From Escherichia coli (GTDB taxonomy: Bacteria; Pseudomonadota; Gammaproteobacteria; Enterobacterales; Enterobacteriaceae): a stretch of 64,000 nt of DNA. The translations under genes and the position numbers were made by a program. Numbering within the stretch: position 1 is the first letter of the stretch; each line of letters begins with the position of its first letter. The DNA is taken from assembly GCF_044324875.1 (NCBI RefSeq), contig NZ_CP172185.1, one strand, 5' to 3'. This document shows positions 1 to 16,317 of the stretch, piece after piece. The notes under the pieces were generated by a model. The model saw nothing but the letters and a program-made list of their open reading frames with translations, was not told the DNA's origin and made no database searches.

Positions 1-53
1 CATCATAACTCACCAAACAACCAGTCACCAGTTAAGATACATCAAAAAAAAAT

Positions 54-91
54 TACCCATGGGTATTTACTTTTTGGATACCCATGGGTAT
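54..91. repeat. Two copies of the perfect palindrome TACCCATGGGTA (54-65 and 79-90; second extends to ATACCCATGGGTAT 78-91), centres 25 bp apart, each followed by a T-run
   Basis: Read directly from sequence; dyad symmetry typical of a dimeric DNA-binding protein operator. Confidence 0.6.
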
Positions 92-283
92 ACTTTTTTT
101 CATACCAACCCACCCCGCCCCACAGAACGCAGGGCAATACTTCGAGTTACCAGGCAGTGGTCAGGGGTTAAGTAGCCAGCCCGAGGCGTATGAACATGAC
201 GGCAGGGTTTAACTTTAACTATGCAGCAGGTTTTTGTTCCGCTACCCCGGCGTTAAGGGGAAACAGCACTGAGAGAAATCAGT

Positions 284-502
284 ATGCAGAAGCGAGAACC
301 CGTCATCATCTCGCCAGACTATACCGATGATGAACTTTATGAGTGGATGCGCCGGAAAATTCAGGCTGCGCAGGACCTGAAGTGGGCCAATGAAGCCAGG
401 GCTAAGGAGGCTGAAAATCTGTCAGCTCTGGAGCAGGATATCACCAGGCTGGAAAAAGCAGCGGCATTAAGCATTGCCAGAATGATTACATACCCGCGTT
501 AA
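284..502 (+). CDS. Hypothetical small prophage protein (72 aa), predicted helical/coiled-coil
   Basis: ORF with GAGA-type RBS upstream, co-oriented with prophage early genes; no recognised family. Confidence 0.45.
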   Translation: MQKREPVIISPDYTDDELYEWMRRKIQAAQDLKWANEARAKEAENLSALEQDITRLEKAAALSIARMITYPR

Positions 503-946
503 CAGCTAATCAACAAGGCCAGGGTTGGTAATTAATGACTTCTCCACGGGTGAGGTGGAGTGCGTGCGCCGGACACAGACTGGTTAACGTCGCCTGGAGG
601 CACCAGGCACCGCATCAACAAAGTTCACTTCGGTGATGAAAGGTAAGAGAAAATGTTGAATGTAGCTATTGAAAACCAGTACGGGTGGAATTATAGTGCA
701 CCTGCACCTCATAAAGCGGGTGCCGGGATTGCTACCCCGACGTTCACTAACGCGCATAACCGCGCCCAGGCGGTTTTTTTATGCGTAATGCACAGCCACA
801 TTCAGATTATGGTGGGGCGTGCAGGGCAGCCGCAAGGCTGGCCGGGTTCGTTAGTGACCGGTTGTAGCAACCCTGTACGTCTCACCACCCATGAGATTGC
901 TACCTCCGGTGGTGAGTTAATCAAATTCACTAACGAGGCTGCCATC

Positions 947-1501
947 ATGGCTACTATCCCTACCCTTTCTCACCCTGACATAACCATCAAAAACGGTCGC
1001 GCTGTCACTACGTCTATTGCGATCGCAGAGTTCTTTGGCAAGCGCCATGAACGAGTGCTGGATAAAATTCGCAATCTGGACTGTTCAGCAAAATTCACTG
1101 AGCACAATTTTGTGTCGAGCAAATACACCGACTCAACCGGGCGCAAACTCCCTATGTACCAAATCACCAAAAACGGCTTCGTTTTCCTGGTGATGGGCTT
1201 CACGGGCAAAAAGGCCGCTGCATTCAAGGAAGCCTACATTGCCGAGTTCGACCGCATGGAGGAAGAACTGCGCCGGAATAACACCACACCCGCTGACAAA
1301 ATAATCCCGGGTGATGGCCGCACCCTGGTTATCCGCTTCGACGAACACGGCTACATCAAATTCACCGAAACCGTTCCTGATGGCGCACTGGTCTGTACTC
1401 TGGATACTTTCCGTTTTTATCTGGAAAAGCAGGGATGGACTCTCATAAACCGGGGCGCAATTAAAAATATGACCGTCGAGCAGTTGCTGAGTATTAAATA
1501 G
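947..1501 (+). CDS. Phage regulatory protein, Rha family (about 184 aa)
   Basis: Motif TTSIAIAEFFGKRHERVLDKIRNL typical of the Rha N-terminal domain; GAGG RBS before ATG 947; the track ORF 653-1501 is probably over-extended upstream. Confidence 0.7.
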   Translation: MATIPTLSHPDITIKNGRAVTTSIAIAEFFGKRHERVLDKIRNLDCSAKFTEHNFVSSKYTDSTGRKLPMYQITKNGFVFLVMGFTGKKAAAFKEAYIAEFDRMEEELRRNNTTPADKIIPGDGRTLVIRFDEHGYIKFTETVPDGALVCTLDTFRFYLEKQGWTLINRGAIKNMTVEQLLSIK

Positions 1502-1546
1502 TTTTCTGGAATTTCCTTCATATCACAAATTATTAAGGAGATTATT

Positions 1547-1768
1547 ATGATTGCTCATCACTTCGGAACCGATGAAATACCACGCCAGTGCGTCACTCCC
1601 GGCGATTACGTTATTTACGAAGGCCGGACATATATCGCCTCGGCAAACAATATCGAAAAGCAAAAACTTTATATCCGTGATTTCACTACAAAAACATGCA
1701 TTACTGACCGCATGATTAAAGTCTTCCTCGGTCGTGATGGTTTACCTGTAAAGGCGGTGGCATGGTGA
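1547..1768 (+). CDS. Hypothetical small prophage protein (73 aa)
   Basis: Strong RBS AAGGAG 8 nt before ATG; no recognised family. Confidence 0.5.
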
Positions 1769-3990
1769 GCTGTAATAAATAACTGACCCAATACGACATT
1801 CAGCTTAATAAATACATAAGGGTCGATTCTTATATGCCAGCAATGGCAGGGATTCGCACAACCTTAAAACAGCAATGAGGTTTATCAATGAGCACTGATA
1901 AAGAAACTTTTGCGCTATATTGCGAAGCTAAAAATGACAAAGTCAGAAAACGCCTTGGGATTAAAGGTGGTTTTTACTGGACTACAGCAAAAAAATTATC
2001 TGTTGCCATCTCCCGCTGCATTACCGCAATGGATGATAACGATTATGATGAAGACGACTTTAAAAAACCTGTTCGCGTCCATTTGCCCGTTGTTGATGAC
2101 CTTCCACCGGAAGGCGTGTTTGATACCGAATTCTGTAACCGGTATGAAAAAGGCGGCGAAGATGGCATCACAATGATATTTATCGCGCCTCCGCCATCCG
2201 CGCAGGACAAACCAGCCAGCACTGACAACACCAATGTTAATGGCGAAGACATGACTGAGATTGAGGAGAATATGCTTCTGCCGGTTTCAGGTCAGATTCT
2301 GCCTGTTCGCTGGCTGGCGCAACACGGCGGCGAAAAACCAGTAACGCACGTTTCGCGGGATGAACTGCGCTCATTACATAACGCACAGGAAGAAAAACTT
2401 CCCGCCGTTACCGCGCTGGCCATCTCAAATAAAGCAGCGCAACTCGAACCGCTGGAGATTCGGGATTTGTACAAACTGGTGCGGGACACTGACAAAGTTT
2501 TTCCCGCTCCCGTAAATTCAGACCTGGGACTGATGACCTCCTTCATCGAAGCATACCTGGACGCTGACTACACTGATCGTGGTCTGCTTACAAAAGAGTG
2601 GATGAAAGGAAATCGTGTTTCTCGCATCAGTCGCACACCATCCGGCGCTAACGCTGGCGGCGGTATTCTTACCGATCGCGGCGAAGGTTTTGTGCATGAT
2701 AATGCGTCAATGGCATTCGATGTTGCTACAGGAAAACTGGCTCGTTCGATGGATGTGGATATTTACAGCATGCATCCTTCACATACCAGACGTGTTAACG
2801 AAATTATCGCAGAAAATGATCCCTGTTTCTCCGTCTTCCTTAAGGCTTTTCTGAACATGCCAGGCGGGATGGATTATTCCCGCGCCATCGTGGTTGCCTC
2901 CGTGAAAGAAGCACCGGTTGGTATAGAGGCTATGCCCCACCGCGTCACCGAATACCTGAATAAAGTGCTGACCGAAACCGATCATGCCAACCCTGATCCG
3001 GAAATCGTGGATATTGCCTGCGGTCGTTCCTCTGCACCAATGCCGCAGCGTGTAACAGAAGAAGGAAAACAGGATGATGAAAAAAAACCGCAACCGTCTG
3101 GCGCAATGGCAGATGAACAGGCAACTACTAAAACAGTGGAACCGGATACAACTGAACATCATCCGGACACGCAGACGCTGGATGCTCGGCCGCAGGTGAA
3201 TTCTGTTGATGCGAAATATCAGAAACTGCGGGCAGAACTCCATGAAGCCCGGAAAAACATTCCGCCCCAAAATCCTGTCGACGAAGACAAATTGCTGGCA
3301 ACCTCTCGCGGAGAATTTGCTGAAGGGATTAGCGACCAGAATGATCCGAAATGGGTGAAGGGGATTGAAACCCGCGATTCTGTGAACCAGAATCAGCAAG
3401 AAACGGAACAGAACGACCAGAAAGCGGAACAAAACAGCCCAAATGTGCAACGAAAAGAGCCAAAAGCGAAACAATCCGAACCAGTAGCGCAACAGGAACC
3501 GGAAAAAGTCTGCACCGTCTGCGGTCAGAGCGGTGTCGACAACTGTCCTGATTGTGGCGTGGTGATGGGCGACGCAACATACCAGGAAATGTTCGATGAA
3601 GAGAATCAGCCTGAAGTTCAGGAAAATGATCCAGAGGAAATGGAAGGCTCTGCGCATCAGAACAAGGAGAACTCTGGCGGCAATCAGCATCATGCCAGCG
3701 ATAGTGAAACTGGCGAGACGGCAAATCCCTTAATTAAGATAACCAGTCATCACAAATATAAGTCCACAAGCAAAACGTGGTATCACCTGATGATCGACCT
3801 TGAAACAATGGGAACCAACACCAATGCACCCATAGTAGTTATTGGTGCGGTTTTCTTCGACCCGGAAACAGGGGAAATCGGGCCGGTATTTTATATCGTT
3901 ATCAGCCTGACTGACGCAATGAATACAGGGGCTGTTTGAACCGCCCCGGGAATCCTGGAGACTAAACTCCCTGAGAAAGAGGTAAACAGA

Positions 3991-4317
3991 ATGACTAAAA
4001 ATACTCGTTTTTCCCCCGAAGTCCGTCAGAGGGCGATTCGTATGGTTCTGGAAAGTCAGGGCGAATATGACTCACAGTGGGCGGCAATTTGTTCCATTGC
4101 CCCAAAGATTGGCTGTACACCGGAGACTCTGCGTGTCTGGGTACGCCAGCATGAGCGGGATACCGGAGGCGGTGATGGCGGGCTCACCACCGCTGAACGT
4201 CAGCGTCTGAAAGAGCTGGAACGTGAAAATCGTGAACTGCGCCGCAGTAACGATATCCTTCGCCAGGCTTCCGCTTATTTTGCGAAGGCGGAGTTCGACC
4301 GCCTCTGGAAAAAGTGA
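3991..4317 (+). CDS. IS629 transposase OrfA (108 aa)
   Basis: Recognised IS3-family OrfA sequence; stop overlaps orfB start in ATGA. Confidence 0.9.
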
Positions 4318-5204
4318 TGCCACTGCTGGATAAGCTGCGTAAGCTGTACGGGGTCGGACCGGTATGCAGTGAACTACATATTGCCCCGTCAACGTATTAC
4401 CACTGTCAGCAACAGCGACATCATCCGGATAAACGCAGTGCCCGTGCGCAGCGCGATGACTGGCTGAAGAAAGAGATACTGCGCGTATACGATGGGAATC
4501 ATCAGGTATACGGTGTGCGTAAAGTCTGGCGTCAGTTGTTACGGGAAGGAATCAGGGTAGCCAGATGTACAGTGGCGCGCCTCATGGCGGTTATGGGACT
4601 TGCCGGTGTTCTCCGGGGTAAAAAGGTCCGCACTACCGTCAGCCGGAAAGCCGTTGCCGCAGGCGACCGCGTAAACCGTCAGTTTGTGGCAGAACGTCCT
4701 GACCAGTTGTGGGTGGCTGATTTTACTTACGTCAGCACATGGCAGGGGGTCGTCTATGTGGCGTTCATCATTGATGTGTTTGCCGGATACATCGTGGGGT
4801 GGCGGGTCTCATCGTCTATGGAAACGACATTCGTGCTGGATGCTCTGGAGCAGGCGTTATGGGCCCGTCGACCGTCCGGCACAGTCCATCACAGTGATAA
4901 AGGTTCTCAGTATGTATCGCTGGCCTACACACAGCGGCTTAAGGAAGCCGGATTACTGGCATCAACAGGAAGTACTGGTGACTCGTATGACAACGCGATG
5001 GCGGAGAGCATCAATGGCCTTTACAAAGCGGAGGTAATACACCGTAAGAGCTGGAAAAACCGGACAGAAGTGGAGCTGGCCACACTCACGTGGGTGGACT
5101 GGTATAACAATCGACGATTGCTGGAAAGGCTGGGCCATATCCCACCGGCAGAAGCAGAAAAAGCTTATTATGCTTCCATCGGAAACGATGATCTGGCAGC
5201 CTGA
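4314..5204 (+). CDS. IS629 transposase OrfB (296 aa, DDE integrase-like catalytic domain)
   Basis: IS3-family OrfB; overlaps orfA by 4 nt. Confidence 0.9.
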
Positions 5205-5706
5205 GTTCACAGATAAAACACTCTCCAGGAAACCCGGGGCGGTTCAGTTCCTGATGGTGGCACCATCGAATGGTGGCTGAAGCAGTCCAGCGAAGCCAGA
5301 GCTGCCATTTTAACTGACCAGGTAAAAATGAAAGATGCCCTTTTGCGTTTTCGGGAATTCGTCAATGAACACTCCGATGAAAAATTCGTTCAGGTGTGGG
5401 GTAATGGCGCAACGTTCGATAACGCAATTTTGCGCACCTCATACGAACGTCTGGACATCCCCTGTCCGTGGCATTACAGCAACGATCGTGATGTACGCAC
5501 AATCGTTGAGATGGGGAAAATCACAGACTTCAATGCCAGAAGCGTAATTCCATTCGAAGGCGTGCGCCATAATGCTCTGGATGACGCTCTTCACCAGGCA
5601 AAATACGTAACAGCCGCTATACAAAAACTGATCCCGAATCAGGCTGATTTTTAATGTTCAACAGTCGCCAGTTGTCGTTGCTATTCTGCAACTGGCGCGT
5701 TCCGGA

Positions 5707-5985
5707 GTGATAGCCATGAGCGAACAGTACCTGATAACGCTCGATGAGTGGAAACCAAAACGGTTCAGTCTCCCAATAACAAACACTACCCTGGTGAAAT
5801 ATGGAAAACTAGGATACATCGTTCCAAGACCACAAAAAATTCGTGGGCGTTGGCTGATAGATCGCCGGGCAGTATTTGTTGGGCCAGGTGAAACAGGAAT
5901 TGCGCCGGAAATTCATACTGGCGATGATGATGCACTGAAGGAGATTTTAACTCATGTCACCGAGGCCACGAAAAAACAGCACTGA
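5707..5985 (+). CDS. xis: Prophage excisionase-like protein (92 aa)
   Basis: Small basic ORF directly upstream of and overlapping the integrase start by 32 nt. Confidence 0.6.
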   Translation: MIAMSEQYLITLDEWKPKRFSLPITNTTLVKYGKLGYIVPRPQKIRGRWLIDRRAVFVGPGETGIAPEIHTGDDDALKEILTHVTEATKKQH

Positions 5986-7072
5986 CGTAGCCGGTCTTTA
6001 CGAAAAGTTTGATCGCAGAACTGGCAGGGTTTACTACCAGTATAAAAACCCTGTGACTGGAAAATTTCACGGTCTCGGAACAGACAAATGTAAGGCAGAA
6101 AAAATCGCTTCCACAGCCAATCAGCGAATAGCTGCAGCAGAAGCTGAATATTACATGCGCAAAATTGATGAAAGTCCGTCAGCAACAAAACGTCGGGGTA
6201 TCAGATTAAAGGCATGGGTTGAACGATATCTGAAAATACAGGACACACGACTAAAAAATGGAGATATTGCAGCTACAACCCACAAAGAAAAAGCCCGAAT
6301 GGCTGCATACCTGGTTTCCCGTCTGGGAAACCACCCATTGAAAGAACTGGAAGTAAGAGACTTTGCATTGATACTGGATGAGTGGCTGGATAAAGACATG
6401 GTCAGCACGGCGAGAGTAAACCGTGGATTATGGGTTGATATTTATAAAGAAGCACAGCATGCAGGGGAAGTTCCTCCCGGATGGAATCCTCCGGAGGCTA
6501 CCCGTAAACCGATCCCTAAAGTAAGCAGAGCCAGACTCACCCTGGAAGACTGGCAAAAAATTTACAATGCAACGCCTGAAAGGCACTTTATTCGTAACGC
6601 AATGCTTCTTGCAATTGTTACTGGTCAGCGCCGTGATGACATTTGCCACATGCGTTTTTCAGATGTGTGGAACGAACACTTGCATATCACCCAGGGAAAA
6701 ACCGGAATGCGTCTGGCGTTACCGCTTACACTCCGCTGTGATGCCATTGGGATAACGTTAAAAGAAGTTATTGATGGATGCCGAGACAGAATATTAAGTC
6801 CATACCTAATCCATAGTCGGCACCAGAAACAACCAAAACCGATGAGTAAAGACAACCTGAGCGACTACTTTGCCAAAGCACGGGATCTGGCTGGGATAAT
6901 TCCACCAGCAGGAAAAACTCCTCCCACATTTCATGAACAACGCTCTCTATCAGAACGGCTGTACCGTACGCAGGGTATCGATACAAAAACATTACTGGGA
7001 CATAAAATCCAGGCAACCACCGATCGCTATAACGATACCCGAGGTCAGGAATGGGTTAAGTTGGTTATTTGA
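5954..7072 (+). CDS. int: Prophage tyrosine integrase (372 aa)
   Basis: C-terminal catalytic signature HxxR (HEQR) and terminal Tyr (DRYNDTR); N-terminal arm-binding-like region; lies at the prophage/host junction. Confidence 0.9.
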   Translation: MSPRPRKNSTDVAGLYEKFDRRTGRVYYQYKNPVTGKFHGLGTDKCKAEKIASTANQRIAAAEAEYYMRKIDESPSATKRRGIRLKAWVERYLKIQDTRLKNGDIAATTHKEKARMAAYLVSRLGNHPLKELEVRDFALILDEWLDKDMVSTARVNRGLWVDIYKEAQHAGEVPPGWNPPEATRKPIPKVSRARLTLEDWQKIYNATPERHFIRNAMLLAIVTGQRRDDICHMRFSDVWNEHLHITQGKTGMRLALPLTLRCDAIGITLKEVIDGCRDRILSPYLIHSRHQKQPKPMSKDNLSDYFAKARDLAGIIPPAGKTPPTFHEQRSLSERLYRTQGIDTKTLLGHKIQATTDRYNDTRGQEWVKLVI

Positions 7073-7238
7073 CAAACACCATATGGAATATCCGTCACCA
7101 TCTCAGGAAAAAAGTGTTGTAAAATGCGTGGCCTTGTTTTGGGGAAAAGTTTTGGAGAGATTTTGGAGAAAGGAAAAAATTGAATAAATTCAAAATCCTG
7201 AAAGTGCTCCACCTTATGAATAAAAAGGTGGAACTCGA
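7073..7238 (+). promoter_or_regulatory. attR region with three direct repeats TTTTGGRGA (7137-7145, 7150-7158, 7161-7169) and a short open frame ending ...NKKVELE* that overlaps the potC start like the potB 3' end
   Basis: Repeats read from sequence; the phage/host boundary must lie in this interval because int ends at 7072 and potC starts at 7239. Confidence 0.5.
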
Positions 7239-8033
7239 ATGATCGGTCGACTGCTTCGCGGCGGTTTTATGACCGCTATCTACGCGTACCTGTATATCCC
7301 AATCATTATTTTGATTGTGAACTCCTTTAACAGCTCGCGCTTTGGCATCAACTGGCAGGGTTTTACCACCAAATGGTATAGCCTGCTGATGAACAACGAC
7401 AGCCTGTTACAGGCAGCGCAGCATTCACTAACAATGGCGGTGTTTTCGGCGACGTTTGCTACGCTTATCGGTTCACTGACGGCAGTTGCGCTGTACCGTT
7501 ATCGCTTTCGTGGTAAGCCGTTCGTTAGCGGAATGCTGTTTGTGGTGATGATGTCACCAGATATCGTGATGGCGATTTCGCTGCTGGTGCTGTTTATGCT
7601 GCTGGGTATTCAGCTTGGCTTCTGGTCGCTGCTGTTCTCGCATATCACCTTCTGCCTGCCATTTGTGGTGGTGACAGTGTATTCGCGCCTGAAAGGTTTT
7701 GACGTGCGAATGCTGGAAGCGGCGAAAGATCTCGGTGCCAGCGAATTTACCATTCTGCGAAAAATCATTCTGCCACTGGCAATGCCAGCGGTAGCGGCGG
7801 GCTGGGTGTTAAGCTTTACCCTGTCGATGGACGATGTAGTAGTTTCTTCGTTCGTCACCGGACCAAGCTATGAAATTCTGCCGTTAAAAATTTATTCGAT
7901 GGTCAAAGTCGGCGTATCGCCGGAAGTTAACGCGCTGGCAACCATATTACTGGTGCTGTCGCTGGTGATGGTAATTGCCAGCCAGCTTATTGCTCGTGAT
8001 AAAACGAAAGGTAACACAGGGGACGTTAAATGA
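7239..8033 (+). CDS. potC: Spermidine/putrescine ABC transporter permease PotC
   Basis: 264-aa ORF recognised as E. coli PotC. Confidence 0.95.
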   Translation: MIGRLLRGGFMTAIYAYLYIPIIILIVNSFNSSRFGINWQGFTTKWYSLLMNNDSLLQAAQHSLTMAVFSATFATLIGSLTAVALYRYRFRGKPFVSGMLFVVMMSPDIVMAISLLVLFMLLGIQLGFWSLLFSHITFCLPFVVVTVYSRLKGFDVRMLEAAKDLGASEFTILRKIILPLAMPAVAAGWVLSFTLSMDDVVVSSFVTGPSYEILPLKIYSMVKVGVSPEVNALATILLVLSLVMVIASQLIARDKTKGNTGDVK

Positions 8034-9076
8034 AAAAATGGTCACGCCACCTGCTCGCGGCGGGTGCTCTGGCACTGGGCATGAGCGCCGCTCACGCCGA
8101 TGACAACAACACGCTGTATTTTTACAACTGGACCGAGTACGTGCCACCAGGACTGCTTGAACAGTTCACCAAAGAAACCGGTATTAAGGTTATCTATTCG
8201 ACTTACGAGTCGAACGAAACCATGTATGCCAAGCTGAAAACGTACAAAGACGGTGCCTATGACCTGGTGGTTCCTTCAACCTATTACGTCGATAAAATGC
8301 GTAAAGAAGGGATGATCCAGAAGATCGACAAGTCGAAGTTAAGCAATTTCAGCAACCTCGATCCAGACATGCTCAATAAGCCGTTTGACCCGAATAACGA
8401 CTACTCCATTCCGTATATCTGGGGTGCGACGGCGATTGGTGTTAATGGTGATGCGGTGGATCCCAAATCCGTTACCAGCTGGGCCGATCTGTGGAAGCCT
8501 GAGTACAAAGGCAGCCTGCTGCTGACCGACGATGCCCGTGAAGTGTTCCAGATGGCACTGCGTAAGCTGGGCTACTCCGGTAACACCACCGATCCGAAAG
8601 AGATTGAAGCTGCATACAACGAGCTGAAAAAACTGATGCCAAACGTCGCGGCGTTTAACTCCGATAACCCGGCGAACCCGTATATGGAAGGCGAAGTTAA
8701 CCTCGGCATGATCTGGAACGGTTCTGCTTTCGTTGCACGCCAGGCGGGTACGCCAATTGATGTGGTGTGGCCGAAAGAAGGCGGCATTTTCTGGATGGAC
8801 AGCCTGGCGATCCCGGCAAATGCCAAAAACAAAGAAGGCGCGCTGAAATTGATCAACTTCCTGCTGCGCCCAGATGTGGCAAAACAGGTTGCTGAAACTA
8901 TCGGTTATCCAACGCCAAACCTTGCGGCGCGTAAGCTGTTAAGTCCGGAAGTGGCGAACGATAAAACGCTCTACCCGGATGCTGAAACCATTAAAAATGG
9001 TGAATGGCAGAATGACGTTGGCGCAGCCAGCAGCATTTATGAAGAGTATTATCAGAAGCTGAAAGCAGGACGTTAA
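8030..9076 (+). CDS. potD: Spermidine/putrescine periplasmic binding protein PotD
   Basis: 348-aa ORF with signal peptide, recognised as PotD. Confidence 0.95.
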   Translation: MKKWSRHLLAAGALALGMSAAHADDNNTLYFYNWTEYVPPGLLEQFTKETGIKVIYSTYESNETMYAKLKTYKDGAYDLVVPSTYYVDKMRKEGMIQKIDKSKLSNFSNLDPDMLNKPFDPNNDYSIPYIWGATAIGVNGDAVDPKSVTSWADLWKPEYKGSLLLTDDAREVFQMALRKLGYSGNTTDPKEIEAAYNELKKLMPNVAAFNSDNPANPYMEGEVNLGMIWNGSAFVARQAGTPIDVVWPKEGGIFWMDSLAIPANAKNKEGALKLINFLLRPDVAKQVAETIGYPTPNLAARKLLSPEVANDKTLYPDAETIKNGEWQNDVGAASSIYEEYYQKLKAGR

Positions 9077-9133
9077 TTCAGCAAGCGGGCGGTGGTATTA
9101 CCGCCCGTTTTTTATTTAGCAAGGATGTGGCTA

Positions 9134-9595
9134 ATGAGTCAGGACAGTAGAGTTTTCTTTCGTATATTCCTCGGTATCGGTCTGGTACTGATCCTCATTT
9201 CTGTTGTTGTCTTTTATAACCAGTTCACCTATAGCAAAGACGCGATTCATACTGAAGGCGTCATTGTTGATACCGTCTGGCACTCCAGTCATTCTCATCG
9301 CACGGGTAAAAATGGTTCGTGGTATCCCGTCGTTGCCTTTCGACCGACGCCTGATTACACGCTAATTTTCAATTCGAGTATCGGCAGCGATTTTTATGAA
9401 GACAGCGAAGGCGATAAAGTTAATGTTTATTATTCTCCAGGGCATCCTGAAAAGGCTGAGATAAATAACCCGTGGGTTAATTTTTTTAAATGGGGGTTTG
9501 TCGGCATTATGGGCGTTATTTTTATCGCCGTCGGTTTATTAATCAGTATGCCCTCCTCTAAAAAGTCACGCAGGAAACGGAAGTCCCGTCCATGA
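9134..9595 (+). CDS. ymfA: Inner membrane protein YmfA (DUF3592)
   Basis: Recognised E. coli YmfA; start chosen to give 153 aa (track ORF starts at 9092). Confidence 0.8.
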
Positions 9596-10294
9596 AAAAA
9601 ATCATAATACTGCTCAGTTTACTGATACTGCTGCCTCTGACAGCAACCAGTAAGCCCTTAATCCCAATAATGAAGACACTTTTTACGGATGTTACAGGTA
9701 CTGTACCGGATGCTGAGGAGATTGCGCGGAAAGCGGAGCTTTTTCGTCAACAAACCGGGATTGCGCCGTTTATCGTGGTTGTACCTGACGTTAATGAAGC
9801 AAGCTTCAGGCAAAATGGCAAAGCGATGCTGGCGCATGCGTCATCTTCATTGAGTGATGTAAAAGGCAGCGTCCTGTTACTTTTTACCACCCGCGAGCCA
9901 CGGTTAATTATGATAACCAACGGCCAGGTTGAAAGCGGTCTGGACGATAAACATCTCGGCCTTCTGGTTGAAAATCACACTCATGCTTATTTACATGCGG
10001 ACCTCTGGTATCAGGGAATCAATAATGCATTGGCTGTTTTACAAGCACAGATATTAAAACAACCGACGCCGCCACTGACATATTATCCGCATCCCGGACA
10101 ACAGCAGGAGAATGATCCTCCCGGCAGTACCACGATATTAGGTCTTTTTGCCTGGGCAGTTGCATTCATCTTCTTTACTGCATTTTTTTACTACACGACG
10201 CGCCTTAATTATGCATTAAAGTTTGCAGTGGCGATGACTATTGCCAATATGGGTTATCAGGCTTTATGTTTGTACATCGGGTAATGACTCCAAC

Positions 10295-10798
10295 TTATTG
10301 ATAGTGTTTTATGTTCAGATAATGCCCGATGACTTTGTCATGCAGCTCCACCGATTTTGAGAACGACAGCGACTTCCGTCCCAGCCGTGCCAGGTGCTGC
10401 CTCAGATTCAGGTTATGCCGCTCAATTCGCTGCGTATATCGCTTGCTGATTACGTGCAGCTTTCCCTTCAGGCGGGATTCATACAGTGGCCAGCCATCCG
10501 TCATCCATATCACCACGTCAAAGGGTGACAGCAGGCTCATAAGACGCCCCAGCGTCGCCATAGTGCGTTCACCGAATACGTGCGCAACAACCGTCTTCCG
10601 GAGCCTGTCATACGCGTAAAACAGCCAGCGCTGGCGCGATTTAGCCCCGACATAGCCCCACTGTTCGTCCATTTCCGCGCAGACGATGACGTCACTGCCC
10701 GGCTGTATGCGCGAGGTTACCGACTGCGGCCTGAGTTTTTTAAGTGACGTAAAATCGTGTTGAGGCCAACGCCCATAATGCGGGCAGTTGCCCGGCAT
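10295..10798 (-). CDS. insB: IS1 InsB reading frame (expressed as InsAB' by frameshift)
   Basis: 167-aa ORF recognised as IS1 InsB. Confidence 0.9.
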
Positions 10799-10992
10799 CC
10801 AACGCCATTCATGGCCATATCAATGATTTTCTGGTGCGTACCGGGTTGAGAAGCGGTGTAAGTGAACTGCAGTTGCCATGTTTTACGGCAGTGAGAGCAG
10901 AGATAGCGCTGATGTCCGGCGGTGCTTTTGCCGTTACGCACCACCCCGTCAGTAGCTGAACAGGAGGGACAGCTGATAGAAACAGAAGCCAC
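10717..10992 (-). CDS. insA: IS1 InsA
   Basis: 91-aa ORF recognised as IS1 InsA. Confidence 0.95.
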
Positions 10993-11159
10993 TGGAGCAC
11001 CTCAAAAACACCATCATACACTAAATCAGTAAGTTGGCAGCATCACCTGTACATCGATAATAGCTTTGCGATTACCAGAATATCGCCGCTCTGGGCAGGG
11101 CTGATTGGTGTCTGTACGTTTATTGCCGCGTTGTTATTGACGAGTAAACGGTAAAAGAG

Positions 11160-11290
11160 GCAGTAAAGTGTGCGTTTATTATGCCGGATGCGGCGCGAAC
11201 GCCTTATCTGGCCCACAAAACCCGCAAATTCAATTAATTGCGTCCCCTTGTAGGCCTGATAAGCGTAGCGCATCAGGCAATGCTTCCTGC
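11160..11290. repeat. REP/BIME-type palindromic units between ycfZ and cobB
   Basis: GCCGGATGCGGCG...CGCCTTATC and GTAGGCCTGATAAGCG...CGCATCAGGC motifs. Confidence 0.7.
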
Positions 11291-11291
11291 T

Positions 11292-12113
11292 TTATAAGCC
11301 CTTCAGCAACTTTTCAACAAACTCTGGCACCACCTGGCTTGCCGGGCCGTAATATTTCTCGGCAAATTCATTACCGACCTGGCTTGGTTCAAGATTCAGT
11401 TCCACGGTGTGTGCGCCATGCAGTTTCGCTTCGTGAACAAACCCAGCCGCCGGATAAACATGCCCTGATGTACCAATGGCAATGAAAATATCGGCCATTG
11501 ACAACGCCATATAAATTTCATCCATGCCGAGTGGCATTTCGCCAAACCAAACGACGTGCGGGCGCAAGGGTGCCGGGAACTGGCAACAATGGCATTTATC
11601 TTCTGGCGTAACGTCTCCGGTCCAGTCGAGAACCTGACCACTTTGCGAACAGCGAACTTTCAGCAGTTCCCCATGCATATGAATGACATTGGTATTACCT
11701 GCGCGTTCATGCAGGTTGTCGATATTCTGCGTCACCAGCAAAAAGCGATCGCCGAGGGCGTCTTGCAGTTTAGCCAGCGCAAGATGCGCGGCGTTAGGCT
11801 GAATTTCTGGCTGCTGTAGCTGTCGACGACGGGCGTTATAAAACGCTTGCACCAGTTCAGGATCGCGATCGAAACCTTCCGGCGTTGCCACATCTTCAAC
11901 CCGATGTTCTTCCCACAGGCCATCTGCGGCGCGAAAGGTACGAATACCTGATTCCGCAGAAATCCCTGCCCCTGTCAGTACGAGTACTCTTGGTTTTTCC
12001 ATTGCTTCCGGCACCACTTTATCTCTGAAAAAAATACGCTGACGCAAACGCTCGCGCAGACGGCGTTTATTTTTACGAAAACGACTTAACCGATGACCCC
12101 GACGCGACAGCAT
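11292..12113 (-). CDS. cobB: NAD-dependent protein deacylase (sirtuin) CobB
   Basis: 273-aa ORF recognised as CobB. Confidence 0.95.
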
Positions 12114-12128
12114 AGCAACCTCTGTTGT

Positions 12129-13040
12129 TTAATCGGTTAGATGTAGGAAGGCCGCACCACGCATTCCTCCCGCATCACCGTGGCGCGCGCGTTCAATGCG
12201 CGGAACACGAGCTACAGGTAAGAGATGACGAGGCAGCCTGTCCGCCAGTTGCGTTGTGATTGCCGGGAAATTCGATAAGCCACCACCAATGACGACCAGG
12301 TCAGGGTCAACAATGGTCAGGATATTTCCCAGACAAACCGCTAATAAATCCAGATAACGCTCAACGTGCGCCCTTGCCTGCTCATCACCTTGATCATAAA
12401 GCGCAATAATTTCGGGAGCCTGCAACGGTTGATGATAATAGTGTTGATACAGCCACGCAAAACCGCGACCAGACAGATAATTTTCAATGCAGCCATGCTG
12501 ACCACAGCCGCAGCGGCGTAACGGGAAATCCAGCCCCATCATGGTTAACGCATCAACCGGCAGACGCATATGGCCAAACTCGCCGGTAATATAGCTTTTA
12601 CCGGTAATTGGTTTACCGTTGAAAATCAGCCCGCCGCCAACGCCGGTGCCGAGAATCAACCCCATCACTAGTGGATATTGAGTAAATTCATCATCCCAGG
12701 CTTCTGAAAGGGCAAAACAGTTGGCATCGTTATCAAGGCGGACATCGCGATCAAGACGTGCGCTCAGGTCGGCACGCAGCGGTTTACCGCTGGCAGCGGG
12801 GACATTGGCGGCATACAGCGTACCATCTTCTGTTTCCGGCATTCCCGGAATACCGATGCCGACAGAACCTTTACAGCCAAAACGCTTATCGGCTTCAGCC
12901 ACCAGCTCGCACACTGCATCTAAAAATGCGTCATAGCTGTCACGCGGTGTCGGCACCCGCTTTTCCCACTGCAACTGCCGACTGCTATCAAACACGCCAA
13001 GCGCAATTTTTGTTCCACCAATATCAAACCCGTAATACAT
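12129..13040 (-). CDS. nagK: N-acetyl-D-glucosamine kinase NagK
   Basis: Recognised NagK; start set at [11 protein letters not shown] to give 303 aa. Confidence 0.9.
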
Positions 13041-13068
13041 TGCCGCTCCTTGTTTTAATGTACTGCCT

Positions 13069-16317
<3,249 letters not shown>

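Follow-up and report, generated by a model that had tools for sequence, protein, structure and literature searches.

The window analysed here, a stretch of 64,000 nucleotides of an Escherichia coli chromosome, includes a prophage integrated at the potB/potC junction. One gene of this prophage, encoding an exonuclease, is split by an insertion sequence (IS), and the genes for excisionase and integrase follow on the same strand before potC, which starts at 7239. The features relevant to this report are as follows.

1888..3936, + strand: exonuclease 5′ fragment, codons 1-683, ending at the TGA at 3937-3939 within the IS
3934..3936: left copy of the GTT duplication
3937..3961, + strand: left inverted repeat (IRL), TGAACCGCCCCGGGAATCCTGGAGA, whose first three bases, TGA, are the stop of the truncated exonuclease ORF
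3991..4317, + strand: orfA, 108 aa, DNA-binding part of the transposase, matching NF033516
4272..4388, + strand: ALIL pseudoknot (Rfam RF01497), stimulator of programmed -1 frameshifting, 116.2 bits
4314..5204, + strand: orfB, 296 codons from a GTG, in the -1 frame relative to orfA, DDE catalytic part
5222..5246, - strand: right inverted repeat (IRR), reverse complement TGAACCGCCCCGGGTTTCCTGGAGA
5247..5249: right copy of the GTT duplication
5250..5654, + strand: exonuclease 3′ fragment, codons 684-817 plus stop, with Exo II and Exo III; phrog_2082 and phrog_255 ('exonuclease')
5716-5985, + strand: excisionase gene (xis), downstream of the IS
5954-7072, + strand: integrase gene (int), downstream of the IS and followed by the potC junction

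The inserted element

An earlier note, made from the sequence alone, had described a 1310-bp element with terminal repeats, flanked by a 3-bp duplication, and both observations were borne out. The element occupies exactly 1,310 bp (3937-5246), is intact and lies in the same orientation as the exonuclease gene that it interrupts. Its ends read TGAACC...GGTTCA, thus starting with TG and finishing with CA, and the terminal inverted repeats, both TGAACCGCCCCGGG, agree at 14 of 14 positions, and at 23 of 25 across the first 25 bp. With no mismatches allowed, the 14-mer TGAACCGCCCCGGG is found at just two places in the 64-kb window, and these are the two ends of the IS. The flanking GTT triplets (3934-3936 and 5247-5249) are identical, as would occur by chance for a 3-mer with a frequency of 1/64, and a 4-bp duplication is impossible at this insertion (TGTT vs GTTC). 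The span of 3934-5249 given in the note comprises the IS and both GTT copies.

OrfA is identical to public proteins found on at least 1,000 contigs, and OrfB likewise matches widespread public proteins exactly; fusion of the two (OrfAB) yields a transposase of 404 aa. The model NF033516 (transpos_IS3) matches OrfB with 308.5 bits (cutoff 160) and matches the OrfA part as well. The ALIL hit is full-length (1-117) and is to be compared with a gathering threshold of 50 bits. A slippery run, AAAAAG, is situated at 4309-4314, just ahead of the orfA stop codon. On the basis of its sequence, the IS is probably still mobile. In identical copies of the IS elsewhere, the ALIL feature has also been annotated by PGAP.

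Under the ISfinder criterion, isoforms are 90% or more identical in nucleotide sequence to the reference, in this case IS629. The element is 96.1% identical to one annotated 'IS629' in phage BP-4795, 95.8% identical to 'IS3 family IS629' in Stx2_499 and 95.1% identical to an O157 copy (PGAP 'IS1203 family'). The name IS629 as used here rests on the approximately 96% identity to depositor-labelled copies, taken as a proxy for the ISfinder reference, and by that proxy the identity lies above the 90% level. The element is approximately 95% identical to two other subtypes, and copies that are 100% identical to it were found in the chromosome of E. coli 23CRST013 and in the Salmonella plasmid NZ_CP012931. 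The hosts of the identical copies are poultry and human commensal E. coli and, for the plasmid, Salmonella.

The features shared with IS629 (isoforms IS1203 and IS3411; known from O157:H7 and Shigella) include the length of 1,310 bp, the TG...CA ends, imperfect repeats of approximately 25 bp, the 3-bp duplication, the -1 frameshift between orfA and orfB, the ALIL pseudoknot and the preference for prophage DNA (PMC3271280). Subtypes of IS629 are 4-5% apart, and their duplications are 3-4 bp in length (Rump et al. 2011, PMC3271280). For the same IS in viral contigs, the duplication was 3 bp at 34 of 38 duplication-bearing sites. The window element differs by approximately 5% from the O157 copy and, again, from the subtype found in strain PK8241 (see below), and so represents a distinct subtype. 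These comparisons support the placement of the element in the IS3 family, within the IS629/IS1203/IS3411 isoform group. The label IS629 given in the earlier note is therefore appropriate as to the kind of element; it does not denote the O157 copy itself, as this is an isoform approximately 95% identical to the O157/Shigella-type copies.

The interrupted exonuclease

Joining 1888-3936 to 5250-5654 produces an ORF of 2,454 nt, consisting of 817 codons and a stop, with no internal stop codon. Removal of the IS and one GTT thus restores a continuous 817-codon frame, as had been claimed, with the flanks joining in frame. In the window as it stands, the truncated 5′ ORF (1888-3939) encodes 683 aa and ends with the TGA at 3937-3939. 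The earlier note had referred to this as the 'IS stop codon'; it does consist of the three opening bases of the IS, but belongs to the truncated exonuclease ORF. In the 3′ fragment, the sole internal start codon opens a 108-aa ORF (5328-5654), which does not contain Exo I.

The product of the 5′ fragment has a RecE-like N-terminal region and an acidic linker, together with a CxxC...CxxC motif (aa 542-557) and the first part of a DEDDh domain, in which Exo I lies. The Pfam match to the Rv2179c-like DEDDh domain (PF16473) spans residues 633-805 of the restored protein (E 1.5e-67). Exo I (IDLETMG, aa 636-642, nt 3793-3813) lies upstream of the IS, while Exo II (WGNGATFDNAIL, aa 733-744, nt 5397-5432, with FDNAIL at aa 739-744) and Exo III (HNALDDALHQ, aa 790-799, nt 5568-5597) lie downstream. 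It is apparent, from the Pfam span and the motif positions alike, that the insertion is situated within the DEDDh domain between Exo I and Exo II, as the note had proposed. All of the DEDDh motifs are found in the restored protein (D-x-E in Exo I, D in Exo II and H-x4-D in Exo III), whose family is conserved, with catalytic residues that are invariant across the Enterobacteriaceae. In the window as it stands, no single polypeptide includes all three Exo motifs. Because Exo I is separated from Exo II and Exo III, the exonuclease activity would be lost, as no polypeptide with a complete active site should be possible. The 683-aa N-terminal product could keep whatever function the RecE-like region has. 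Precise excision of the IS would be expected to restore the wild-type allele, since the duplication and the flanks are unaltered.

The N-terminal region was compared with RecE, the exodeoxyribonuclease VIII encoded by the Rac prophage. Residues 1-633 align with positions 1-620 of the 877 in the NCBIfam RecE model NF007259, with a score of 1,010 bits (cutoff 1,269), and Pfam PF06630 covers residues 57-189. The likeness to RecE resides in these N-terminal 620 or so residues and in the early-left operon position of the gene, near kil, xis and int. In contrast to RecE, the protein lacks the C-terminal 5′-3′ nuclease domain (model positions 621-877), carrying the DEDDh domain instead, and no adjoining recT is present within the window. 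The description 'prophage exonuclease' can accordingly be refined: the gene encodes a fusion protein, with an N-terminal region resembling that of RecE and a DexA-like DEDDh domain, and is not RecE proper.

The resemblance of the DEDDh domain to T4 DexA (exonuclease A; PDB 8KEL/8KEN) includes membership of PF16473 and phrog_255, and conservation of the catalytic residues. The two align, Exo I and Exo II included, both by phmmer (E 4.6e-10) and by hhalign, where the probability is 98.9% (E 3.6e-17), with 34% identity over 140 columns. For the C-terminal half, no sequence match was found in the PDB. DexA and its E. coli homologue EcD, which constitutes the 'HREX' defence and protects against T4 (PMC12153337), are stand-alone proteins of approximately 190-227 aa, whereas the domain in the window forms the C-terminal fifth of an 817-aa protein. 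The start of EcD corresponds to the internal MIDLETMG, as judged from a primer sequence in the supplement (PMC12153337); no protein starting with MIDTET was present among the top 120 homologues. The tetramer-forming Asp of DexA (D90) has been lost from EcD, in which it is Ala78, whereas the window protein keeps an Asp (KMKDALL); the equivalent of DexA S87 is Lys. Of the DexA residues involved in 5hmC recognition, W152 aligns to Ser133 of the query, with a family-invariant Trp three residues upstream, and D169 falls outside the aligned region. A scan with PADLOC returned only a weak, generic DEDDh hit.

IS-free relatives and the age of the insertion

The restored protein is identical, over all 817 residues, to the public protein P0031, which is present on at least 10 contigs. 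The earlier note's description of the locus as a clean insertional pseudogene is thus well founded, as the restored product is a real protein and near-identical siblings lack the IS. Empty sites read GAATACAGGGGCTGTTCCTGATGG, with a single GTT, in LH50-c and sibling contigs, and 15 complete genomes have an empty site, at an identity of at least 99.5%, reading ...GGGGCTGTTCCTGATGG. The IS-free contigs L021-L023 are 99.85-99.95% identical to positions 1-3936 of the window and 99.98-100% identical to positions 5247-10279, and carry their genes in the order seen in the window (Rha, KilR, exonuclease, xis, int, potC, potD). For L022 in particular, the identity to the flanks in the window is 99.95-100%, and the exonuclease gene differs from it at a single nucleotide (position 3036), which leaves the protein unchanged. 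Comparison with IS-free prophage alleles had been proposed in the note; since such siblings at potB/potC are near-identical to the window on both sides, the insertion is judged to be recent and clean.

Many prophages of this type are defective, and PGAP calls fragments of the gene partial or pseudo in several genomes, so the IS might have landed in dead DNA, within a gene that was already a decaying pseudogene. That explanation is improbable. The restored ORF is uninterrupted, with 817 of 817 residues shared with proteins on those 10 or more contigs, and the sole difference from L022 is silent. In addition, the allele shared by PK8241 and SLK172 is an intact ORF of 821 codons, and the family is conserved, with its catalytic residues invariant in the Enterobacteriaceae.

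The exact junction was found in none of 5,426 complete E. coli genomes (0/5,426). The junctions read ACAGGGGCTGTTTGAACCGCCCCGGG and CCCGGGGCGGTTCAGTTCCTGA as 26-mers; the exact junction 26-mer was absent from the viral and metagenome contig collections, and the exact 683-aa truncated product was not found in the protein index. The junction therefore rests on one assembly. Multicopy repeats of the IS629 type often confuse assemblies, and a collapsed or misplaced repeat could account for a junction that is absent from every collection searched. However, a perfect 3-bp duplication, full-length repeats and a site that is otherwise base-for-base identical to that of the siblings are the signature of real transposition, and the same architecture exists in an independent complete genome. 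Given the perfect duplication and flanks, misassembly is very unlikely, and an artefact is given almost no weight here. Members of the protein cluster that are approximately 675 aa long and labelled 'partial' were considered as draft traces of the insertion and were rejected; their ends fall 7-8 codons short of the junction and were read as ordinary contig breaks.

Taken together, these data point to the following account. An IS3-family element of the copy-out/paste-in type recently transposed into a lambdoid/Rac-like prophage at the potB/potC junction, inserting after codon 683 of an 817-codon gene of the early operon and duplicating the target triplet GTT. The exonuclease gene was intact up to the insertion, which cut off Exo I (Asp/Glu) from Exo II and Exo III (Asp, His, Asp); translation of the 5′ part now stops at the TGA that opens the IS. 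For this account as a whole, the recent transposition of an IS629 isoform that split an intact prophage exonuclease gene, the probability is estimated at roughly 0.93.

Such an insertion is ordinary E. coli biology, to which the recurrence at the exact site, described below, adds slight interest. IS629-type insertions in prophages are a well-documented strain polymorphism in E. coli, and form the basis of IS-printing typing. With IS-free siblings available, this is an unusually clean and datable case, and it could be used to mark the strain, or as a natural knock-out that is reversible. Insertions of IS629 are potentially reversible through precise excision, which is raised by the IEE protein (bioRxiv 10.1101/2023.06.07.543989; PMC3271280). 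In STEC, prophage and chromosomal genes known to have been knocked out by the IS629 group include stx2 (stx2::IS1203v), gne (gne::IS629) and lacZ (lacZ::IS in O121). The case presented here resembles these in that a gene is inactivated by simple insertion, accompanied by a 3-bp duplication; it differs in its target, a RecE-N::DexA-like prophage exonuclease, and in its host, which is not O157.

A second insertion at the same nucleotide

An IS629 subtype is inserted in PK8241 at the same nucleotide, in the same orientation and with the same GTT duplication; this is the 1 genome of the 5,426 complete genomes with an insertion at the site. The PK8241 element is 94.7% identical to that in the window, the 70 differing sites being distributed along the whole element, and is 100% identical to further copies within PK8241. 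The exonuclease allele of PK8241 is approximately 86% identical to the window allele. Compared with the IS-free SLK172, its left flank is 100% identical (2,061 bp) and its right flank 99.92% identical (3,840 bp). Among variable sites up to 400 bp to each side, 105 of 107 segregate by allele, up to positions -31 and +6 from the junction.

Given that the position, orientation and duplication are identical, and that both prophages are located at potC, the two insertions might be thought to represent one ancestral event, inherited or recombined between alleles, with no hotspot involved. The divergence of the two IS copies could then be ascribed to later gene conversion of the IS interior, since the IS copies of one genome can convert each other. 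Against this, the two alleles with the IS match their respective IS-free twins (SLK172 for PK8241, L022 for the window; 99.92-100%) to within 31 bp on the left and 6 bp on the right, the 105 variable sites follow the allele pattern, and the 70 differences between the IS copies are spread out. Transfer between alleles would, moreover, need crossovers confined to stretches of identity of 30 bp and 8 bp. A single event is thus already largely refuted, and its probability is very low. As both alleles have IS-free twins, the comparison indicates that the insertions in the window and in PK8241 are independent.

Since the same nucleotide was hit twice independently, the site at codon 683 seems to be a favoured target of IS629-type elements, a suggestion drawn from two events only. 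The chance of such a coincidence was estimated at approximately 1-3% under a generous null, which allowed for a weak consensus and for prophage bias.

It is also conceivable that the insertion was selected or is regulatory, either by a polar effect on xis and int that locks the prophage in place, or by removal of a costly or defensive nuclease of the DexA/EcD ('HREX') type. The IS precedes xis and int and shares their strand, the exonuclease gene has been knocked out twice at one site, and the homology to T4 DexA brings to mind the protection against T4 that is provided by EcD (PMC12153337). However, a simple scan of the + strand detected no terminator-like site within the IS and no promoter-like site after it, and inactivation would not demand an identical nucleotide. 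The protein also keeps the D90 equivalent, while W152 and D169 do not map, the PADLOC match is weak and generic, and the insertion occurs in just 1 of 5,426 complete genomes. Selection or regulation is therefore considered rather unlikely. Natural pairs of intact and interrupted alleles could be used to probe whether this widespread prophage version of the DexA family defends against T4 as EcD does (PMC12153337).

The target specificity of IS629 was left as an open question by Rump et al. 2011 (PMC3271280), whose supplements do not include flank sequences; both the recurrence described above and the weak consensus derived here bear on it. That consensus consists of C at -1, T-C at duplication positions 2-3, no G at +4, and G at +5. 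The insertion site scores in the top 4% on it and thus fits the consensus, which alone does not explain the exact recurrence. Similarities among duplications were reportedly noted by Ooka et al. in 2009, in Genome Research. As the IS subtypes are approximately 5% apart, the alleles are approximately 14% apart, and the nucleotide and orientation are the same, the GTT at codon 683 may be a hotspot for IS629, directed by sequence or structure; this is put forward tentatively, as a possibility that is more doubtful than not, and the recurrence might also reflect selection against the DexA-like nuclease. If the site is a hotspot, it would provide a defined substrate for working out the target specificity of IS629.

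Mimicry of the IS end by the target was considered as well. The empty site, ACAGGGGCTGTTCC, and the right end of the IS, CCCGGGGCGGTTCA, are alike at 10 of 14 positions (P ~0.014), and among 15 sampled sites the insertion site is the best match to the IS end. Across 38 duplication-bearing IMG/VR sites, however, the mean match was 7.1 versus 7.04 (P = 0.23) and, in a fixed register at the same 38 sites, 3.7 versus 3.5 expected, which does not amount to enrichment. Mimicry of the IS end is accordingly rejected as a general rule, and is possible only as a peculiarity of the site in the window. Blast hits extending 17-30 nt into the left flank were examined as a shared target motif and discarded, having been selected for flank similarity. 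The sequence of the empty site also features a G-run and GCTGTTCC.

The interrupted gene and the element within it

The interrupted gene belongs to the early-left operon of a prophage of lambdoid/Rac-like type; elsewhere the window holds ordinary E. coli chromosomal DNA (potCD to mfd, fhuE, ptsG and the fab cluster).

Features of the prophage region and its border (window coordinates)
653-1501, Rha/Ash-type regulator, 282-aa ORF upstream of Kil
1547-1768, Kil, between the Rha/Ash-type regulator and the exonuclease
3793-3813, Exo I (IDLETMG), 5′ of the IS
3937-5246, IS3-family insertion sequence, IS629 group, 1,310 bp exactly
3991-4317, orfA, 108 aa
4272-4388, ALIL pseudoknot, full-length Rfam match (116 bits; threshold 50)
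4314-5204, orfB, -1 frame
5397-5432, Exo II, 3′ of the IS
5568-5597, Exo III, 3′ of the IS
5716-5985, excisionase, after the exonuclease
5954-7072, integrase, after the excisionase
7239, potC, next to the integrase, followed by potD
10271-10279 and 11048-11056, 9-bp duplication of IS1, TGTACATCG
10280-11047, IS1 element, 768 bp, inverted repeats GGTAATGACTCCAACTTATTGAT and GGTGATGCTGCCAACTTACTGAT

The element at 3937-5246 carries all the parts expected of an IS3-family insertion sequence. The terminal repeats reported in the earlier note were found as TGAACCGCCCCGGG at both ends, inverted, with 14 of 14 positions perfect and 23 of 25 alike across the first 25 bp; zero-mismatch matches to the 14-mer in the 64-kb window were the two IS ends only. 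The GTT duplication was likewise observed, as identical triplets directly outside the IS (3934-3936 and 5247-5249), and a 4-bp duplication was ruled out (TGTT versus GTTC). The overlap of orfA and orfB falls at an AAAAAG run, and ALIL is the Rfam family of the structure that stimulates frameshifting in these elements. OrfB scored 308 bits with the NCBIfam IS3 transposase model (cutoff 160). Unrelated replicons (the chromosome of E. coli 23CRST013 and a plasmid from Salmonella) carry copies with 100% nucleotide identity, and widespread public proteins match OrfA and OrfB exactly, which argues that the copy in the window is very probably functional.

Copies labelled IS629 by GenBank depositors (phage BP-4795, Stx2_499) are 95.8-96.1% identical to the window IS, and an O157:H7 copy labelled 'IS1203 family' by PGAP is 95.1% identical. 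Rump et al. 2011 (PMC3271280) handled IS1203 and IS3411 as IS629 isoforms, with a 4-5% difference between IS629 subtypes and duplications of 3-4 bp. The name IS629 is thus right at the level of the isoform group, identity having been measured against depositor-labelled copies.

The N-terminal region of the restored 817-aa protein is RecE-like: Pfam PF06630 covers residues 57-189, and the RecE model NF007259 (NCBIfam) places residues 1-633 on model positions 1-620 of 877, with 1,010 bits, short of its cutoff (1,269). A Rv2179c-like DEDDh domain follows at the C-terminus (PF16473, residues 633-805, E 1.5e-67), so that a 3′-5′ exonuclease domain stands in place of the RecE nuclease domain. Annotation of this fusion gene family is inconsistent (exonuclease, 3′-5′ exoribonuclease or RecE family). 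In the IS-free strain SLK172 (L019 2240-4705), PGAP annotates one continuous exonuclease ORF of 821 codons as two features, a pseudogene ('RecE family, partial') and a shorter CDS ('exonuclease').

The interrupted DEDDh domain (3793-3936 plus 5250-5654) is a homologue of T4 DexA, its closest solved structure (8KEL/8KEN; phmmer E 4.6e-10). A family profile of 37 sequences aligned with DexA at an hhalign probability of 98.9% and 34% identity, and phrog_255, the PHROG containing DexA, was matched by both gene fragments. The DexA homologue EcD of E. coli has been shown to break down DNA carrying 5hmC and to confer protection from T4 (PMC12153337, 2025); its N-terminus is M-I-D-T-E-T according to the cloning primer in that paper, and its start is equivalent in position to the internal MIDLETMG of the prophage exonuclease. 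Of the residues that serve to define EcD-like specificity (PMC12153337), the D90 equivalent is retained in the prophage domain, unlike in EcD; DexA W152 aligns to a Ser, DexA D169 falls outside the alignment, none of the top 120 homologues starts with MIDTET, and PADLOC gave only a weak generic DEDDh match. An EcD-like defence role is therefore offered as a possible lead, not a classification. EcD is a stand-alone homologue, and stand-alone versions of 183-190 aa are common across the Enterobacteriaceae.

Consequences of the insertion and IS-free siblings

Exo I lies upstream of the IS, and Exo II and Exo III lie downstream, so the position originally described, between Exo I and Exo II, is correct. 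Translation of the upstream ORF (1888-3939, 683 aa) would stop at a TGA (3937-3939) formed by the first three IS bases. Joining 1888-3936 to 5250-5654 restores a frame of 2,454 nt, 817 codons plus stop. DEDDh (DnaQ-like) catalysis requires all four acidic residues and the His on one chain. Since the IS divides the catalytic domain and ends the 5′ ORF within its own sequence, it can safely be inferred that exonuclease activity is lost. Given the perfect duplication and flanks, precise excision could potentially reverse the insertion; transposase and IEE are known to stimulate the excision of IS629 (bioRxiv 10.1101/2023.06.07.543989). Simple terminator and promoter scans gave no support for IS polarity on xis/int.

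Comparison with IS-free alleles bore out the description of a clean insertional pseudogene. Public protein P0031 (10 contigs) equals the restored protein exactly over its full length, and four of its contigs (L021-L024) have this prophage in the same place at potC. One of them, L022, has 2 mismatches to window 1-3936 and none to 5247-10279 and 11048-14431. The empty site, present at ≥99.5% identity in 15 complete genomes, reads GAATACAGGGGCTGTTCCTGATGG in strain LH50-c, with GTT once only. That the gene was already dead before the IS landed is excluded, as the siblings carry it intact and the restored protein is exactly P0031. The IS1 element, which breaks a TPM-domain (ycfZ-like) gene (ORF 9592-10284) close to its 3′ end, is a second young insertion; L022 lacks it and has the empty site GTTTGTACATCGATAATAG. 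The window is therefore a known IS-free sibling plus these two insertions. Taken together, these data confirm the earlier observation and support its interpretation.

Recurrence at the same nucleotide and target choice

The insertion is a fresh instance of a very well-known type of event, to which recurrence at the exact site adds an observation. The left junction was spanned by one of 5,426 complete genomes, that of E. coli PK8241 (NZ_CP080139.1), at just 95% identity. Its IS (5151-6460 of locus L002) has the same position, orientation and GTT, but is 94.7% identical to the window IS, with 70 dispersed differences; further copies on the PK8241 chromosome and mcr-1 plasmid match it at 100%. 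The surrounding alleles are 85-87% identical, and the differences closest to the insertion point lie at -31 and +6. A single ancestral insertion, or its transfer by recombination, would also place both elements at one nucleotide, but is effectively excluded by this IS divergence and by the pairing of each allele with its own IS-free twin: within 400 bp on each side, 105 of 107 variable sites segregate window with LH50-c and PK8241 with SLK172. The PK8241 flanks match SLK172 at 100% across 2,061 bp and 99.92% across 3,840 bp, and both have an intact 821-codon ORF (restored in PK8241). As judged from the alleles, the insertions are two independent recent events.

According to Rump et al. 2011 (PMC3271280), the site specificity of IS629 is unknown. 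Compared with the right end of the IS, the empty site agrees at 10 of 14 positions (P about 0.014), the best such match among 15 sampled sites. In an unbiased sample, 120 IMG/VR loci with the left end of this IS (L026-L145) yielded 53 distinct sites, 38 with a duplication; at these 38, likeness to the inverted repeat was at background (7.1 versus 7.04, P = 0.23), and a repeat-mimicking target was rejected as a general rule. Read in the IRL-to-IRR direction of the IS, these sites favoured C at -1 (18/38), T and C at the second and third positions of the duplication (17/38 and 20/38) and G at +5 (22/38), with G in 0/38 at +4. The -1 C and +5 G form a complementary, partly palindromic pair, and the commonest duplications were TTC, ATC and GTC. 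This weak position-specific preference held in a leave-one-out test (P = 2e-11) and was marginal on 10 additional sites from complete genomes (P = 0.07). At 2.51, the score of the exonuclease site exceeds the real-site median and ranks among the top 4% of positions, but 219 positions/orientations within the gene score equal or better. The consensus thus marks it as a good target without explaining the exact recurrence. With the consensus and the known bias towards prophages taken into account, chance coincidence was roughly estimated at 1-3%, and the site is therefore a likely, but not proven, IS629 hotspot.

Other observations in the window

Rfam matches to isrK (704-780 (+), 62.7 bits) and C4 antisense RNA (805-892 (+), 78.2 bits) fall within the first ~80 codons of the Rha/Ash-type ORF (653-1501). 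They suggest a P1 immI-like antisense-RNA/antirepressor module, and the annotated start of the ORF may be too far upstream. Two ordinary RNA elements of the chromosome, SraB sRNA and the RNase E 5′ UTR element (44892-45060 (-) and 46921-47257 (+)), gave expected scores, with nothing unusual. Across the 25 kb of window 7100-32000 the best complete RefSeq E. coli genome is only 98.6% identical, and identity of 100% to the chromosomal part is reached by draft contigs such as GCA_958308375.1; in the collections searched, draft assemblies alone thus represent the host lineage.
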